DNA of 63,356 nt, the filler included, from Basidiobolus ranarum (lineage: Eukaryota): NCBI GenBank assembly GCA_040143965.1. It is 55 parts of 55 records of this genome, joined end to end, with 100 filler letters (N's around TTAATTAATTAA, not from the genome) between each part and the next. Parts side by side here need not be neighbours in the genome. Positions count along the whole stretch, not along the records: positions 31,231 to 32,284 come from JASJQH010013536.1; 54 more parts are not named here. One strand, given 5' to 3'. Numbering within the stretch: the first letter of the stretch is position 1; each line of letters opens with the position of its first letter. The notes below the pieces were generated by a model. The model saw only the letters and a program-made list of their open reading frames with translations, was not told the DNA's origin and ran no database searches. The position numbers and the translations under genes were made by a program. Positions 4,746 through 40,353 of the stretch are shown piece by piece.

Positions 4746-5693
4746 AGATCTTCATGTAAAGGTCAAAAGCAACTTAAGAAGAAAAGTAACACATTTGGTG
4801 ATTACACCAAAAGAACTGGCCATTTAAGCAAAGATTGCTTCAAAAGAGTTGCAAAAGAAGACAAATGTAGTGAATCTGGAAATGAGTTACAACAGAAGAT
4901 CACTTGTTCATATCTGCACTATCTATGACTACAAACAGGGATTCCCAGACATGGTATATTGATTTTGGAGCCTCACAACATTTCACAAATGAAAAACATC
5001 TGTTTGTGAATTATGAAGAAATCCCAATTAGAAAGGTTTTTATGTGAGATGACTGCACATTGGATGCTATTGGAATGGGAAAACATCAAGTCAATTTAAC
5101 TGGAGCTTCTAAAGAGAAGGCATATAGTTTTAAGGATATACTACGTGTTCCAGATTTTGCCAAGAATTTAATATCTGTGTGCAAGGCCACCTCTGAAGGG
5201 CTAAAATTCAATTTTGATAAGTCAGGATACACCATCACTGATCAAGATGGAAATTATTAGGTTTGGGAGAAAAGGATCAGAACTTATATAAACTTACATA
5301 TAATCCAAAAGGTTTATATATAGATATAAGTTGTTCCAATCAAGAAACTATTCAATTATGGCATAAGAGATTTAGCCACATTGGATTTGAATATTTGAGC
5401 AAAATGATCAAAAATTGCCTAATTTCTGGATTTCAAATAACCCCCCAACCAAAATGGAAACTTGTGAGGGTTACATGTATGCAAAACAAGTCAGGCAACC
5501 ATTCAAGAGCTCTGGTTTAATTAAATCTGTCAAAAAAATGGATCTAATTTGTTCAGAGTTGTGTTGACCTATGGAAAGTTTGTCTTTAGGTGGAAAAAGA
5601 TATTTAATCACATTTATTGAAGATTATACAAGATACACTTGGGTCTACTTTATGGAAAGAAAAGAAGAAGCTCTCTCTATCTTTAGAGATTTT
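4746..5693 (+). mobile_element. Copia family A, zinc knuckle-protease-pre-integrase-integrase start, decayed
   Basis: WYID.GASQH, VPDFAKNLISV, LWHKRFSH, decayed DLCGP region. Confidence 0.92.
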
Positions 5694-5793
5694 NNNNNNN
5701 NNNNNNNNNNNNNNNNNNNNNNNNNNNNNNNNNNNNNTTAATTAATTAANNNNNNNNNNNNNNNNNNNNNNNNNNNNNNNNNNNNNNNNNNNN

Positions 5794-6208
5794 AGGACTA
5801 GAAACAACAACAAGAGGCTAGAAGGCAGGAGAGTACTTGGGTGCAGACCACAAGACAAGACAAGACTGGACAATGAAGATACTGTGACAAGAATCTTTAT
5901 TGATAACTGGCATTGATCAGACTGAGGTCTGATCAAGGAATACATGGGGCTTATATAGATATTGCAAGATGAAACATAGTATACTGAATAGGGAATATAC
6001 TGTGGCCAGTTTGAGAGTTGGGGTGTTGGGGACTACAAGGACCAATACAAAGAGGGATGATGTAAGGATGAAGAAAGGATGATCAGGTGACTTTCCATGG
6101 AAGGTCTTGGCAGAAATACACTATGTGTGGGATGACATGATTGGTTAGGTTACATGGAATGTTCTAAAGAACATGATCTCCATATAAGATAATCTGGATG
6201 AACTGACA
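5794..6208 (-). repeat. LTR-like repeat D, copy 1
   Basis: Diverged inverted copy of 6310-6640; starts TGTCAG on the minus strand; contains TATA-like CTATATAAG. Confidence 0.6.
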
Positions 6209-6290: not shown

Positions 6291-6660
6291 TGTCAAGATC
6301 AGAATCATGACACATAGTGTACTTCCACCAAGGCCTTCCATGGCAGGTCACCTAATCATCCACACATCATCCCTGTTTGTATTGGTCCTTGTAGTCCCCA
6401 ACACCCCAATACTTGAACTTGCCACAGTATATTCCCTATTCAGTATATTATGTTTCACCCTGCAATATCTATATAAGCTCCACATATTCCTTGCTCAGAC
6501 CTCAGTCTGATCATCACCAGTTATCAAAAAAGATTCTTGCCAAAGTTTCTTGCCTGTCTAGTTTTGGCTTGTCTCTTCTTGTGGTCTCTACCCATGTACT
6601 CCTCTGCATTCTAGCCTCATGTCATTGTTTCCAGTCCTTGTGTGATTCCTTATTGGGACA
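6291..6660 (+). repeat. LTR-like repeat D, copy 2 (boundaries tentative)
   Basis: TGTC...GACA ends; inverted relative to copy 1. Confidence 0.55.
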
Positions 6661-6722: not shown

Positions 6723-6851
6723 TATTAGGAAAATATGGGCTGTTTGGAGGAACTTTAGAGAGGAGGAGTTGTGAATAGCTTTGTGAGATAATTGTTTATT
6801 GTCCAGAAATAAAGCATTTATACTTTTTGGTAGAAATACAGAAAACTAACA
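6723..6851 (-). repeat. LTR-B 3' end
   Basis: TATTAGGAAAATATGGGCTG... Confidence 0.88.
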
Positions 6852-6951
6852 NNNNNNNNNNNNNNNNNNNNNNNNNNNNNNNNNNNNNNNNNNNNTTAAT
6901 TAATTAANNNNNNNNNNNNNNNNNNNNNNNNNNNNNNNNNNNNNNNNNNNN

Positions 6952-28922: not shown

Positions 28923-29868
28923 AACCATCTTGTTTTTGATTAAATTTCTCATATTTTCAGCTCCTAGATGACCCAATCTCCTATGCCAGATTTTCCAGTC
29001 TATCTCTTCAGCTGTGGCAGTATTAACTTGTTCGTATGTTGGTCCAATATAATGAGGTCTATAAAAGTTATTTTGCTTAGCTCCAGAAGCTATGTAATTC
29101 CCTTTTTGATCCCTGATTGTACAGCCACTTTGATCAAAATTAAAGCTATATCCCTCAGATGTAGCTTTACTCACTGATAACAAATATTTTGCTATCCCAG
29201 GCACATATAGCATGTTTTTCAGTGTCAAACACATGTCCCCAGACATGTCCCCAAGATCCACTTCAATTTCTCCCACTCCCAGAGCTTCTGGTGGCTGGTC
29301 ATCTCCCATATAAACCTTCTTGTTTATGTCAGTTTTGAGTGTCTTGAACCAGTTTTTTTGATTAGAGAAATGTTGAGAGGCTCCAGAATCTATATACCAT
29401 GACCTACAGTCTTGTTTGGAGGTCACTGATAGGGCAGAAACAAATAAAACTTCTTCTTTGGTTGAAACCTGATTTGCTTGTTCTGACTTCTCACTTTTGT
29501 TGTAATTTCTTGATTTGCAATCTTTTATCAGGTGTCCTGATTTGTACAACCTTAGCATAAACCTGATTTCCTTCTTTTGTAACCTTTGTACTTGCCAAAG
29601 CTATGATTTCCAGCCCCAAAAGGAGCCACTTGCTCAGATTCTTTTTCCAAATTCTTACTTCTGAGATGTTGATCCATAAGCCTTGCCACCACAAACTCCA
29701 AACACAACTTGTCAGATCTTGCTTCCAAAGCTGTGACCAAGTTTGAATACTGTTCTGGTGGACTACTTAGAAGAGTCATAATGACATCTTCTTCCTGTAA
29801 AGTTGCATCAATATTTTCCATTTGTTTTGCCAAAGATCTCACATTTGCAATATGAGTAACCATGCTTT
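28923..29868 (-). mobile_element. Copia B gag-protease-pre-integrase
   Basis: WYIDSGASQH, WHRRLGH; collinear with 18760-19579. Confidence 0.93.
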
Positions 29869-29976
29869 TGTTAAAGTATTTGGGAGCCTGTTGGAAGTGG
29901 TTTGGAGAATTAGAGGAATTGGTGGTTTTCACTTATTGATTTATTGAGTAGAAAGTTGACATTTATAGTTTTGTCA
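29869..29976 (-). repeat. LTR-A 3' end inserted in Copia B gag
   Basis: TGTTAAAGTATTTGGGAGCC... is the reverse complement of the LTR-A end. Confidence 0.9.
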
Positions 29977-30076: not shown

Positions 30077-31130
30077 TTTGGGACTAAATTTCGTAATTCC
30101 ACCAGATCTGGAGCTATGTGAAGGTTGCCTATATGGTAGGCAACACAGACAGCCGTTTGTGGGCTCTGGAATGAGCAAAATTGATCAAAAATTGGGCCTG
30201 ATACACTCAGATCTGTGTGGCCCAATGCAGACAAAATCCTTAGGCAGAAAAAGGTATTTTATGACCTTTATTGATGATAAGACAAAGTATACTTGGGTGT
30301 ACTTTCTGGCCAGTAAGGATGAAGCCTTTGATACCTTCAAGAAGTTCAAAGCAATGGTGGAGACTGAAACAGGTCTAAAGATTAAGATTATCTGTACTGA
30401 TAATGGAGGGGAATATACCTCAAAACTCTTCTCTAACTTCTGCTCAACACATGGGATAAAACAGCAGACTACAGTGCCATATTCTCCACAGCAGAATGGA
30501 GTAGCAGAACGTGCAAACAGATCAATAATGGAAAAGGCAAGATCAATGCTTCATGATCAAGATTTACCAAAACAGTTCTGGGCTGAATTGGTTGCAACTG
30601 CAGTATATATTAGGAATAGATGTCCTTCTAGGTCTCTATTGGCTATGACACCTTATCAAGCTTGGTTTGGAAGTAAACCTGATGTGGCTAATCTCAGAGT
30701 TCTTGAAAGTATCACTTATGCAATGATTCCTGACCAGAAGAGATCAAAATTAGACTGGAAAAGGCAGCAATGTCTTTTTTTGGGATATTGTGATGGGACA
30801 AAAGGGTACAGACTGTATGACACTGAAAATAAGAAGCTAATCAAGTCAAGGGATGTGGAATTTGCTGAAGAAGAAAAATTTTCAATCAAAACAATCCAGG
30901 ATCAAGAAAAACAACCAAAAATTGATGAAAATTCTTCTTTTTCTCACCAGATCCTGATCAGTGAGAAAAACATTGAAAATTTCAAACCCACAGTGTCCTC
31001 AACTGAGCCTGAGGTGGTGTCATTGCCTAAATTGGTACCAGAAGTTGTAGTGCCAATTTCCCATCTTAGGAGATCCAATTGGATGAGATCTCTGCCTGAT
31101 TACTACTCTCACACTAGCCAAAAGGAGCCT
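30077..31130 (+). mobile_element. Copia integrase, uninterrupted ~350-codon frame
   Basis: CEGC, HSDLCGP, TDNGGEY, PQQNGVAERANR, CLFLGY...KGYRLYD. Confidence 0.96.
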
Positions 31131-31913
31131 NNNNNNNNNNNNNNNNNNNNNNNNNNNNNNNNNNNNNNNNNNNNTTAATTAATTAANNNNNNNNNNNNNN
31201 NNNNNNNNNNNNNNNNNNNNNNNNNNNNNNAGGTTAGTAACGTTTTACCATTTAGTGCTGGAGATATATGCATTTCCACTTAAACCAAATCATCTCAGAT
31301 TTTACATGGTGATTCACTAGGTGTTCCAATTCATTTTCCTCGATCTCTCAAAGAGTCCGAAGTTTAGTGGGATTTTCCGCGTATATTCATATGACTTCAA
31401 TATACGAATTGCGGGTCTTGCTTGCATTTCGTGGCAACAAACTCTATGCGCAAGTATTATGGCTATATCATTTAACAGCTTGTATTTTGTACAGCAAATG
31501 GTTGACTTAATGAATATATAGGTTATAGGACACTAACCAAAATGCTCAATGCGATCACGGGAACCAAGTTTATCTGATTTATGTGTGGGCAATATATAAT
31601 TTATTCAGATTTGCTTAAGCAGCTTTGGCCTAGGTTGAATATGAATAGTCATTTTGTCGTCGAGTATTCTAATCTATAACAAGCAACGAAAACAAAGGAA
31701 TTAATTGACATGCATTATGGTACCAATTTTGTAGCTGAACAAATGTACTCTAATTTTTTGAATTATCCTAGTCGTTCTGGAGATCATGTATTCATTGTGC
31801 AAGGAAAATTAAGAATTCAAAATTACAGTAAACATTTACTTATTTATTGATTTTATGCAAAATTATACAATTCATAACAAGATGAAGAATTCAATTATGT
31901 ACGAGTGAGAAGC

Positions 31914-32282
31914 CTACAAGGCAGGGCAGCTGGAACACTTGCAGTCATCACCACAACAGCACACATTCTTCTTAGCATCGCATGATTCACACTTGCACTC
32001 TTCGCCACAGCAGCATTTGCTTTCCTTGGCTTGTTCACATTTGCAGTCAGCTCCACATTCACACTTGTCACCGCAAGTGCACTTGTTCTTCTTTACTTGC
32101 TCACATTTGCAGTAGGCTCCGCATTCACACTTGTCGCCACAGGTGCAGTTGGCTTTTTTGGCTTGTTCGCATTTGCAGTCAACTCCACAGTCACACTTGT
32201 CACCACAGGAGCAGTTAGATTGCTTCTTTCCTTGACAGTTGGAGCACTTGCAGTCACTTCCGCATTGGCAAGCTGGAACTTC
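31914..32282 (-). CDS. Long modular metallothionein-like protein, 5'-partial (122 visible aa, 35 Cys); absent from the ORF track
   Basis: Hand translation EVPACQCGSDCKCSNC...(CxCGDKCxCGxxCKCEQ)x3...CCCGEECKCESC...CCCGDDCKCSSCPAL*; repeats differ mostly at synonymous sites. Confidence 0.88.
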   Translation of the reverse strand, partial: EVPACQCGSDCKCSNCQGKKQSNCSCGDKCDCGVDCKCEQAKKANCTCGDKCECGAYCKCEQVKKNKCTCGDKCECGADCKCEQAKESKCCCGEECKCESCDAKKNVCCCGDDCKCSSCPAL

Positions 32283-32384
32283 AANNNNNNNNNNNNNNNN
32301 NNNNNNNNNNNNNNNNNNNNNNNNNNNNTTAATTAATTAANNNNNNNNNNNNNNNNNNNNNNNNNNNNNNNNNNNNNNNNNNNN

Positions 32385-37317: not shown

Positions 37318-38049
37318 ATGACATTGTCATAGTTATTAATTACTCAAATCTAATGAAACAGGCTAAGATCTAGCTATCTACCCAATTTGAAATGCAAGAT
37401 TATAGCCCACTAGCATATTTTCTTGGAATGCAGATACATCAAAGTTCTAATATTGGAACACTCTGTATCACATAAGAAAAATATAGTGGAGTTGTCTTAA
37501 ACAGGTTCAATTTGTTGCAATGTAAAACAGATTCAAATCCACCGTGGATGCTCAAACTCATGAAGGATTTTGAACCAAAAACCTCTGAGGATATTGAAAT
37601 TATTAGACATATTCCTTACTATAGTGCTGTTAGAAGTCCCATATATGCAACAACTGGTACTAGGCCTGATACTGCCATAGCTGTAAGTGTAGCAGTAAAT
37701 ATGTGGAAAATCCTACAACAAATCATTAGATTTCTGAGAAACATATAATATGCGATTGGAAAGGAACCAGACTTCATGGAAGCCAATTTAGTAAGCAGTA
37801 CAACCTGATATTTGTCTTGGAAGGATGTGCTGCTGTACACTGCACTAACAATACAGATGACTCTAAGTCCAGAGTTGTATATACATTTGCACTAGCTTGT
37901 GGACCAATAAGATGAGTGAGAAACAACAAACTATTGCATTATCAACTACAGAAGCAGAATATATGGCAAACTCTATGGCTTTTAAAGAAGCTATATGGCT
38001 AAGAAATCTCCTTAAGGAATTAGGATTTGATTAAGTTCATCCTATCCCA
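37318..38049 (+). mobile_element. Copia RT C-terminus and RNase H
   Basis: TRPD.A.AVS, ALSTTEAEY, KEAIWLR; same family as 25458-26050. Confidence 0.9.
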
Positions 38050-38149
38050 NNNNNNNNNNNNNNNNNNNNNNNNNNNNNNNNNNNNNNNNNNNNTTAATTA
38101 ATTAANNNNNNNNNNNNNNNNNNNNNNNNNNNNNNNNNNNNNNNNNNNN

Positions 38150-38773
38150 AGTGTCACACTACAATGACATATTAGAATAGTCAAAGTTCTTGAGGATTAT
38201 TTTCAAAATTATGAATGGACAATGCAGTGCAAGTATGCAGAAAGTGGCTTCAGAAAAAGAACATTCAACATAACTTTCAGTCTGGTGTTGACTGTGCAAA
38301 TATCTGGGAAGAACTTAACTAGAGTGGCACAATATTGCAAGGTATCCATCAGATAGCTGGAAGAATGTTGATTCAGCAACATTAATATAATGGTGGACTT
38401 TAATGGAAATATTGATACAAACTCATGTTGGATACAAGATAAACCAGGGGTATGAAGAACTTTATAAAAATATTCAGGAGAATATATCAAAGAAACTAGG
38501 GATTTCAATGGTGACAAATTTGCATTTAAGTGGTAGTTGTGTAAAATTTGGGTTATGGTTTTTGCACCTATGTTGATCCATAGTTCTTGGAGATTGTAGC
38601 CAATCATTTGCAACTATTTGGTGAGATCTTCAAATTTCACTCCAGAAACTTAAAAAACGGATTAAAATCAAGTCTAAAAGAACAATTAATGATGGTAAGT
38701 AAGCGGTGAATCCACAATGAATTAAAACTGTAATGGTTTTCCTACAATAACAATCCTGCAATTTCTGTAAGGG
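38150..38773 (+). mobile_element. CACTA ORF2 C-terminus and TIR
   Basis: Ends ATTTCTGTAAGGG. Confidence 0.85.
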
Positions 38774-39201
38774 TGTGCCTATTTGAACTCAAAATCTAAA
38801 TGCCTATTTATTAGTCCATGCTTTAGATTCTCATGAGTTTTATTGTATAGTTTTTTGTGGATATCCAAAGGCATGAAGATATAGCACTCTCTACAGAGCA
38901 GTGTTAAAGTTGCTTCCACTTTGAATAACACCCCATTACCTTGTTTTGGGAATATCTTCCAATTCAATAAGTTGTCTTGCTTTTCTCTTTTACACCTCTG
39001 TGGATTACTCTTGCCATAGTGTCCTGAAATGTGGTTTTGAACTCTGCAACCTCCATTAACAGTTGCTGCAAAGTCTCATTGAGTAGTGGTAGATTACTAT
39101 TTAGAACATCTTTTGTCTCTAAAGTTTAGGCATAAAGATATAGTGTGCTCTCCAAAGCAGAGTCAAAAGTTGCTTCCACTTTTGTCTAATGCCCCCTTCC
39201 T
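38774..39201 (-). mobile_element. PHIS ORF2, decayed and rearranged
   Basis: Blocks homologous to 26640-27030 in permuted order. Confidence 0.7.
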
Positions 39202-39301
39202 NNNNNNNNNNNNNNNNNNNNNNNNNNNNNNNNNNNNNNNNNNNNTTAATTAATTAANNNNNNNNNNNNNNNNNNNNNNNNNNNNNNNNNNNNNNNNNNN
39301 N

Positions 39302-40353
39302 CCTGGAAGAATGCAAGCCAGCAATATTGTGAAGGTTCTCTGATGGTTTTGCTATTTTGGAGGGTGGATCCAATCCGGATCAAATGGATTTTATTTTTGT
39401 TAGGGATGTGTAGAAGGTGATCTTCTTTCTACTGTATCCATCTCATGCTGCAACACAAATGTTTAAAGAAGCCCTGCCATTATTGTCACAAATTCTTGTG
39501 CTATGAAAGCCAGAGGCTTCATAGACAAAATAACCACAAGCACAATCACTGTACAAAGCCACCAGCTGCACAAAGTCTGGAGTATAACAACAGTAATCCC
39601 TAACAGAAATTTGAGTATTGTAATTGTAGGAAAACCATCACAATTTTAATCCATTTGGGATTGACTGTTTACTTACCATCATAAAATTTTCAAGTTAGAT
39701 TTGATTTTAATCAACTTTTTCAGTTTCAGGAGTGAAATTTCAAGATCTTGCAAAAAAGTTGCACACTAATGGCTAAAATCTCAGAGAACTATGGATCAAC
39801 ACTTGTGCAAAACAAGTAACTCAAGCTTTACACAATTACAACTAGATTGCTAATTTGTTACCTTTGAAATCCTTAGTCTCTTTGATATTTTCTCCTGAAT
39901 ATTTTTGTAGAGTTCTTCATATCCAAGGTTTAGCTCATAGCCAACACAAGTTGTGTCAATTACTCCATCAAAGCCCACCATTATATTAATGTTGCTGAAT
40001 CGACATTCTTCCAGCTATCTGGCAGATATCCAGCAATATTGTGCCACTCTGTATTAAGTTCTTCCAAGATAACTGCACAGTCAACACCAGACTTAGTGTT
40101 AAGTTATATGTTCTTCTTCCAAAGCCACTTTCTGCATACTTGCACTGTGTTTTTCTCTTCATACTTTTGAAAATATTCTTCAAGCACTTTGACTATTTTT
40201 GTATGTCCTTGTAGAGTGACACTACCTTTGGGACTAATTTCAACACTTTGAGAAGTACCAGTTGAGGTTGGAGAGCTACAAGTTTTATTTGCTGGTGTTT
40301 TGGCTTGTTGAGAGGTACCAGGTGTTGGATAAACTACCAAATTTAGTACTCTA
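39302..40353. mobile_element. Three nested CACTA pieces: TIR end (39302-39405), host transposase start (39406-39597), ORF2-side end (39598-40353)
   Basis: TGTTAGGG at 39405 and CCCTAACAG at 39598 flank a same-family segment. Confidence 0.85.

Follow-up and report, generated by a model that had tools for sequence, protein, structure and literature searches.

The reading frame in the window

The window, by which we mean the whole analysed stretch of 63,356 nucleotides from Basidiobolus ranarum, consists of 55 contigs of about 1.05 kb each that are chained by artificial N44-TTAATTAATTAA-N44 linkers. One of these contigs (G000:C13536, 31231-32284, 1,054 bases) carries a reading frame on its minus strand at 31914-32282, from which 122 amino acids followed by TAG can be read. 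Thirty-five of the residues are cysteines (28.7%), the single aromatic residue is a tyrosine, and neither His nor Arg is present. A preliminary description of this DNA had listed the same frame with the same length, Cys number and single aromatic residue and had noted its missing start codon, which is explained by the contig end falling inside the gene. The division into six modules given there, namely one 5-Cys module, three 22-aa repeats with the consensus CxCGDKCxCGxxCKC and two CCCGxxCKCxSC units, was also recovered. The features of the locus are:

31231-31913, minus strand: 3' flank of the window copy, homologous to the flanks of its paralogs
31843-31848, minus strand: AATAAA, candidate polyadenylation signal about 66 nt past the stop codon; the 3' flanks of the paralogs are similar there
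31914-32282, minus strand: 3' part of an intronless metallothionein-like coding sequence, 122 codons and TAG, with an N-terminus predicted from five full-length paralogs
31917-31961, minus strand: C-terminal CCC module 2, CCCGDDCKCSSCPAL, 15 aa, 6 Cys
31962-32015, minus strand: CCC module 1, CCCGEECKCESC plus linker, 18 aa, 6 Cys
32016-32081, minus strand: 22-aa 6-Cys repeat 3
32082-32147, minus strand: 22-aa 6-Cys repeat 2
32148-32213, minus strand: 22-aa 6-Cys repeat 1, [CxC]x3[CxC]x3[CxC]x7
32214-32282, minus strand: 5-Cys module EVPACQCGSDCKCSNCQGKKQSN, 23 aa, third module of the full protein
32285-32384, no strand: artificial contig linker N44-TTAATTAATTAA-N44; the DNA on its two sides is not neighbouring in the genome

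Tandem Repeats Finder detected a 66-nt period with 3.4 copies at 32005-32234, and the repeats of the gene differ among themselves at the DNA level. Regarding the Cys arrangement, 26 of the 35 lie in CxC pairs, six in CCC clusters and three are single, and CxCC does not occur. The frame is not a product of chance, as it tops the Cys content among the 87 stop-to-stop frames of at least 80 aa in the window (28% vs 14% for the next one). The window also contains fragments of fungal retrotransposons (integrase and gag-like; 30077-31130, plus strand, and about 29500-29976, minus strand), which were named Ty1/copia-type by eye; they are located on separate contigs and are unlinked to the gene described here.

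A metallothionein-like family in Basidiobolus ranarum

The assembly (65 Mb, 13,754 contigs) was searched with DNA and protein sequences and holds seven long metallothionein (MT)-like loci, including the window copy, and two shorter ones. Five copies are complete and intronless, namely C8267 (127 aa), C8086 and C346 (149 aa each), C9881 (192 aa) and C18 (203 aa), and another copy, C9936, is cut at its 5' end. Contig C18 also encodes a segment of RNA polymerase III subunit C1 (RPC1), which shows 100% identity to an NCBI protein carrying the name B. ranarum, the one hit among 221 candidates. The five full-length paralogs start with an MSSQQTVKICCC-like sequence, M(S/P)SQQ(T/I)VKIC, and follow a layout of three N-terminal modules (7, 6 and 5 Cys), 22-aa repeats and two C-terminal CCC modules, with one or two of the three N-terminal modules missing in C346 and C8267. 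The 22-aa repeat is present once in C8267, twice in C8086 and in C346, four times in C9881 and three times in C18, which additionally carries two 16-aa half units. In its number of 6-Cys repeats the family forms an accordion-like ladder (1, 2, 2, 3, 4 and 3 plus half units), framed by CCC end modules that stay fixed. The earlier claim of a long modular MT-like gene is supported, its module having expanded by internal duplication. From the two shorter copies, one of 92 aa is located on C9881 in tandem with and upstream of the long copy and ends after the first 6-Cys unit; it may resemble the form before expansion. The other, C184 (L023:549-797), is a diverged 82-aa copy that has lost its C-terminus and keeps a TATA box and two intact copies of the promoter element described below despite its divergence.

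With 27.5-28.2% Cys in the five full-length copies, the paralogs and the window copy are inside the range of 13-35 mol% given for MTs (PMC12508003). The five copies contain 17-34 Lys vs 0-2 Arg, at most one aromatic residue, at most one His and almost no Pro, and their Lys and Asp/Glu are balanced. Lys much above Arg is general for MTs (PMC4862169), and the long copies share this trait together with the scarcity of aromatic residues, the exception being C184 with five of them.

An in-frame stop is located 2-7 codons ahead of the ATG in all five full-length paralogs, TATA boxes lie at -52 to -66, and hydropathy analysis revealed no hydrophobic N-terminal core or signal peptide in any of the five. 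These three findings remove two readings for the family, that of a larger protein's tail and that of a secreted protein. The first of them had been put forward in the preliminary description as the Cys-rich tail of a larger metal protein and is not supported: as the complete paralogs start only 49 residues upstream, the window copy appears to be a stand-alone MT-like protein whose N-terminal part of about 49 codons (13 Cys) is predicted to lie beyond the contig end, giving a whole protein of 171 aa with 48 Cys. The contig end inside the frame does make an upstream exon conceivable for this copy, and collapsed repeats could mimic such a gene, yet the upstream stops and TATA boxes of the paralogs, a protein from B. 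meristosporus that starts alike, the DNA differences between the repeats and the related sequence in contigs of two public runs (see below) largely refute both the tail and the assembly artefact, to which we assign practically no probability. The signal peptide had been named beforehand as the sign of a disulfide-rich secreted protein, and its absence bears on a further reading, in which the product, either a disulfide-cross-linked structural component of the spore or wall matrix or a Cys-rich protein that is secreted, would bind no metal at all. Cys-rich repeats alone are indeed no proof of metal binding and no curated MT profile passes its cut-off, but besides the missing signal peptide the near absence of Pro and aromatic residues, the balanced Lys and Asp/Glu and a promoter element common to copper-handling genes argue against it, and we regard it as highly improbable. 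Judged by its sequence, the window protein is very probably a metallothionein.

Among the contigs of the genome none was identified that matches the missing 5' half of the window gene. C8338 was rejected as it is 91-96% identical to the upstream region of C18 and more likely belongs to C9936, and C2615 was rejected with 67-72% identity to all copies alike.

Database searches

The sole homologue found outside B. ranarum is the hypothetical protein ORX81395.1 from B. meristosporus (109 aa, E 8e-23), which has the start of the B. ranarum copies and has lost several Cys. Using the window protein as query nothing was obtained at E<=0.001 among 64 candidates, a profile of six sequences retrieved the B. 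meristosporus protein as one out of 359 candidates, and a full HMMER scan gave two matches, this protein and P0011. The latter (E 3e-4) was discarded as a homologue, being a compositional match only, with a signal peptide and a His-rich sequence. From 171 pattern matches in metagenome contigs none was confirmed. Exact look-up in a collection of 15 billion proteins returned none of seven family proteins, the RPC1 protein encoded on the C18 contig being present, and from two proteins looked up in the Atlas the short paralog P0003 was present letter for letter and P0004 was absent. As the long copies are absent from the protein collections checked, they were probably overlooked during annotation.

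None of the Pfam MT families reached its cut-off with the eight proteins scanned, the best being PF02068 (E 3e-4, 21.3 bits vs 31.8). MTs are polyphyletic, and thus a profile miss counts against membership in a named family and not against MT function. Feature matches in the Atlas amounted to only 0.76-0.81, with PF02068-type plant MTs as the top cluster (0.79), and the Atlas structure model of P0003 shows a pLDDT of 0.24, models of apo-MTs being uninformative. No MT was present among the PDB sequence matches, and matches to the Nab2 zinc finger (E 0.004-0.009) were dismissed as chance Cys spacing. A search of the open-access literature gave no paper on an MT from Basidiobolus or Zoopagomycota, and a search by term of the supplement of PMC12508003 gave no mention of one.

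Selection and duplication

The MT-like family is under purifying selection. Among the five full-length copies dN/dS is 0.16-0.47 in all ten pairs (112 unambiguous codons), Cys is kept in 147 of the 150 cells of the Cys columns, and only 3 of 30 Cys columns vary compared to 34 of 82 others. For the window copy against its paralogs dN/dS is 0.21-0.63, with p<0.05 (Fisher) in three of five comparisons; against three paralogs it is 0.21-0.31, and the comparisons with C18 and C346 are not significant.

The flanks of the loci are 65-89% identical between copies, and the 3' flank of the window copy shows 87-89% identity to C8086 and C8267, 74% to C346 and 65-66% to C18 and C9936. The homology of C18 to its nearest upstream relative stops after about 1.2 kb, and an RPC1 segment, which serves as one control against general redundancy of the assembly, is single-copy at high identity. 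These three observations favour segmental duplicates. B. ranarum, a fungus of the vertebrate gut, has been reported to be at least diploid and to show gene or genome duplication (PMC3281927), and therefore some MT copies or pairs may be alleles. Within a functional family the window copy could also be a redundant allele, or a duplicate in decay that lacks a promoter of its own, as its 5' end is missing with C8338 and C2615 fitting other copies or none, diploidy or more is reported, and orphan promoter fragments on C787 and C7342 as well as the diverged C184 show that copies do decay. Its frame is open, however, with every Cys position intact and a distinct repeat number of three, its 3' flank is 11-35% diverged from every other copy, and its dN/dS against three paralogs is low, which makes an allele or decaying duplicate improbable.

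Related sequence was found at 80-99% identity in contigs of two public runs, X1 and X2, and X1 is possibly not independent of the assembly analysed here. One X1 contig has a net 66 nt less in the repeat region, corresponding to one module, and another joint in the public-run contigs shows a net gain of 180 nt, suggesting that the repeat number varies outside the source assembly too. In run X2 contigs cover the coding sequence and about 80 nt of 3' flank at a depth of hundreds to thousands and 16 of 30 bins are bare; this looks like a transcript library and was not counted as evidence of expression.

Several further sequences accompany the MT loci. U1 snRNA genes are located upstream of two copies, and tRNA-Leu(CAG) and U6 snRNA genes downstream of two, the U6 matches being 122 nt long against a model of 105 positions. 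The duplicated block seems to include these RNA genes, and the 3' flank of the window copy tracks C8086 up to a point about 250 nt from the tRNA. A dispersed repeat of about 340 nt, possibly a small mobile element aiding the duplications, is found near many MT loci in both orientations. A cytochrome P450-like gene (95% identical over 200 nt) lies downstream of both C9936 and C18, marking these two as a closely related pair.

L012:536-698 (C346): match to U1, tRNA-Leu(CAG) or U6
L014:2244-2406, 6516-6596 and 6812-6933 (C8086): matches to the same RNA genes
L015:2106-2187 and 2404-2525 (C8267): matches to the same RNA genes
L012:3887-4230; L016:2221-2525; L066:3078-3415 and 5637-5927; L065:1518-1818; L110:798-1339; L034:2070-2374: dispersed repeat of about 340 nt
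L017:2-1459 and L010:1-245, minus strand: cytochrome P450-like gene

A common promoter element

The 5' end and the promoter of the window copy lie outside its contig, and the element described here is known from the paralogs. TT-NN-GC-N-ATTGG is present in one to three copies in all nine MT upstream regions, three of which otherwise do not align. In this loose form it occurs 23 times in the 4,431 nt of the nine regions compared to once in 87,900 nt of background. A fuller form derived from the paralog promoters reads G-M-G-N4-TT-NN-GC-B-ATTGG, in which ATTGG is a CCAAT box.

A first pattern, made from MT promoters alone, had 34 matches in the genome vs 3 for the reversed control. Sixteen of these are in MT promoters, seven in promoters of a P1B ATPase family (C2039, C3526, C9367 and the homologous promoter of C6755), one at an Atx1-like HMA gene (C7113) and the remaining ten at unrelated or unclear places. 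A refined pattern gave 44 matches vs 3 in the control (22 MT, 12 ATPase family, 1 Atx1-like, 9 other), but as it was built with the ATPase sites included it is not an independent test; its nine other matches comprise two orphan pieces of MT promoters and seven sites without evident metal link. A double-site pattern, whose fourth letter excludes most MT sites, had six matches vs none in the control, all of them in ATPase-family promoters. All 26 sites carry a G five positions ahead of the TT, partly by construction.

Between the ATPase and Atx1 promoters and those of the MT genes the alignment is limited to one 21-nt motif match, and the orientation of the element at MT genes is opposite to that at the ATPase and Atx1 genes. 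The copies on C7113 are located 250-280 nt upstream of the Atx1-like gene in the ATPase-type orientation. The five ATPase promoters are mutually homologous and therefore count as one event. No copy was found at six other copper-related regions of 0.8-5.5 kb each (three Cu ATPases, a CCS-like gene, a second Atx1-like gene and the copper-fist gene). From the known patterns, Mac1 and MRE (TGCRCNC, TTTGC(T/G)C(A/G)) are absent in all nine upstream regions and an Ace1-like one occurs once in five of the nine at scattered places; the element does not match the MacA site TGTGCTCA either. Together with the CCAAT box this would allow for another regulator. Its presence upstream of MT genes, of an expanded group of Cu(I)-type P1B ATPase genes and of one Atx1-like chaperone gene points to a copper-excess regulon.

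Two orphan pieces of MT upstream DNA carry the element without any MT coding sequence. The piece on C787 is located about 300 nt before a glutathione S-transferase (GST) gene, assigned by Pfam, and could put it under the same control.

L101 (C787:7571-7589): orphan MT upstream piece with the element
L110 (C7342:5342-5360): orphan MT upstream piece with the element

Copper ATPases and a copper-fist gene

The Cu(I)-type P1B ATPases form an expanded family with four HMA domains and at least four distinct N-termini. Its full-length representative on C783 combines four GMTCSSC domains with a CPC motif, passes TIGR01511 (Cu) with 471 bits at a cut-off of 397 and narrowly misses TIGR01512 (Cd) with 308 vs 313.5. 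Two looser copies of the element are located 266 and 354 nt upstream of it. Directly upstream of this ATPase and on the same strand lies a 379-aa globin-like frame, which by eye we take to combine a truncated-globin-like N-terminal and a protoglobin-like C-terminal part. The C9868 ATPase copy is broken by frameshifts, and further Cu ATPases on C200, C8105 and C6903 are without the element. One candidate copper-fist gene was found in the assembly, a number to be read as a lower bound; it shows KGRP, several Cys-rich exons and two PCRC-x4-CxC stretches, and its protein is a candidate regulator.

L082 (C783), L041 (C2039), L046 (C3526), L062 (C9367), L047 (C6755), L086 (C9595) and L087 (C9868): Cu(I)-type P1B ATPase family
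L082:4504-5640, minus strand (C783): 379-aa globin-like frame
L064 (C6898:~37500-39400, minus strand): copper-fist gene

Proposed function

We consider it probable, from sequence and by analogy to other fungi, that the window copy belongs to a cytosolic, intronless Basidiobolus MT family that is part of a copper regulon. The same MT family could instead prefer Cd or Zn, or act as a broad buffer against metal or oxidative stress, with a general stress or CCAAT-linked factor recognising the element and the ATPase exporting Cd or Ag besides Cu. In line with this, the element holds a CCAAT box and fits no copper element tested, the C783 ATPase is only narrowly under the Cd-family cut-off, and both the GST gene on C787 and what is presumably a MAPEG-like gene on C7113 adjoin copies of the element. 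On the other hand, the element marks Cu-type ATPases and an Atx1-like chaperone together with the MTs, the copy on C787 is displaced MT upstream DNA, and those on C7113 precede the Atx1-like gene by 250-280 nt in the ATPase-style orientation. The Cys clusters speak for both sides: CCC marks Cd-type MTs in Tetrahymena and is nearly absent from its Cu-type MTs, but the CxC pairs holding 26 of the 35 Cys are the cluster dominating the latter (PMC4862169). On balance a Cd/Zn or stress buffer seems rather unlikely.

Each MT of the family is built from three fixed modules at the N-terminus, one to four 22-aa 6-Cys repeats in the middle and two CCC modules at the C-terminus. Repeat numbers changed through in-frame gain or loss of 66-nt units and also of 48-nt half units, and whole loci were duplicated together with their flanks. 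In the copper-regulon reading a factor binding to the fuller form of the element would, under copper excess, switch on the MTs, the Cu(I)-type P1B ATPases and the Atx1-like chaperone. The thiolates would then bind Cu(I) additively in module-sized clusters, so that the metal capacity would scale with the repeat number while the pumps export copper. For Tremella four Cu(I) per 6-Cys box have been assumed (PMC4755600), and by this analogy the window copy might bind roughly 30 Cu. Going one step further, we tentatively propose that this accordion-like Cu-thionein family evolved independently in Basidiobolus and is co-regulated with the amplified Cu(I) exporters and the chaperone via an undescribed bipartite element (G-M-G-N4-TT-NN-GC-B plus the CCAAT box), which a single copper-fist factor and the CCAAT-binding complex might recognise together.

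What is new is the lineage, the natural series of repeat numbers and the promoter element. The family adds a second fungal lineage, far from the Tremellales, with long MTs made by amplification of a different module, and its copies are a ready series for asking whether metal binding grows by a constant number of ions with every 6-Cys repeat, which has so far been tested on a few proteins from Cryptococcus, Oikopleura and a snail (PMC11645667). The mechanism of Cys-motif duplication has been called poorly understood (PMC12508003), and the intronless Basidiobolus genes display gains and losses of 66 and 48 nt directly. The common element offers a testable entry point to the copper regulation of early-diverging fungi, and if the co-regulation with the accordion-like MTs holds true, Zoopagomycota would have a first outline of a copper-detoxification regulon. 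Basidiobolus lives as a commensal in guts and also causes infections in people and animals. As the MTs of Cryptococcus counter host copper (PMC4755600), its MT family would be a natural candidate for coping with copper in guts or tissue.

Comparison with known metallothioneins and regulons

The closest parallels are CnMT1 and CnMT2 from Cryptococcus neoformans and TmMT from Tremella mesenterica, which are fungal, longer than 100 aa, made by tandem amplification of Cys modules and often missed or mis-annotated (PMC4755600), a fate that the long Basidiobolus copies probably share. Their unit is the Neurospora-type 7-Cys box [CxC]x5[CxC]x3[CxC]x2C, whereas the Basidiobolus repeat is [CxC]x3[CxC]x3[CxC] with Lys/Glu linkers, and TmMT has ten exons and Pro-rich boxes in contrast to the intronless genes found here (PMC4755600). 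A family 8-type 7-Cys box was not found in Basidiobolus, where the modules contain 7, 6, 5, (6)n, 6 and 6 Cys with x3 spacing and none has x5 plus the seventh Cys. Also unlike CnMT and TmMT, the Basidiobolus proteins carry capping CCC modules at both ends, and a single genome, from another phylum, contains at least seven long copies that vary in repeat number. By analogy, the Basidiobolus MTs may work like these long Cu-thioneins while standing outside their 7-Cys family.

The independently expanded family proposed in the preliminary description stands as far as the expansion is concerned, but the newness of its unit was overstated, since all its parts are known separately. Two 6-Cys boxes are known from TmMT and CQCGDKCECK/CGCGDKCECK from Candida glabrata MT1 (PMC4755600), CCC is found in Cd-MTs of Tetrahymena and in an MT of Yarrowia (PMC4862169), and module amplification is recurring in MTs, with long repeat MTs reported in chordates and molluscs (PMC11645667) and internal duplication across Agaricomycete MTs. 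The core of the repeat is present in C. glabrata MT1 (Binz-Kagi family 9), and CGEKCKCE in Saccharomyces Crs5 (family 13), yet both are described as His-containing proteins of 63-69 aa with neither a regular tandem module nor CCC (PMC4755600). No alignment-level homology to MT1 or Crs5 was found by any search. The six-Cys domain of plant MTs has the spacing CxCGxxCxCGxxCxC, equal to that of the Basidiobolus repeat. The Cys-rich domains of plant types 1, 2 and 4 are also CxC-only, but types 1 and 2 have two domains separated by a long Cys-free spacer (PMC4382971), which is in no Basidiobolus copy, the latter having 6-10 modules with linkers of 5-8 aa. With scores far under the cut-off, convergence is as likely as descent. 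Family 7 of Tetrahymena (7a Cd, 7b Cu) is similar in being long (up to 54 Cys), intronless, multigene, modular and Lys-rich, with CCC in 7a and CKC repeats in 7b; the modules of 7a are CC-rich and terminate in CxCCx, neither of which applies to the window copy, and Tetrahymena belongs to a different supergroup (PMC4862169). Unlike 7a, the Basidiobolus family mixes CCC end modules with CxC-only repeats.

Regarding regulation, the copper-fist factor Cup2 of Candida albicans jointly controls MTs and a Cu exporter (PMC6514546), and AceA of Aspergillus controls comparable targets. Basidiobolus resembles the Ace1/Cup2/AceA/Cuf1 regulons (MT plus Crp1/CrpA) in that MTs and a Cu P1B ATPase have common upstream sites and a copper-fist factor with KGRP is encoded. 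It differs from them in an element that is distinct from the MacA site and the Ace1 and Mac1 patterns and includes a CCAAT box, and in having both MTs and ATPase in multiple copies.
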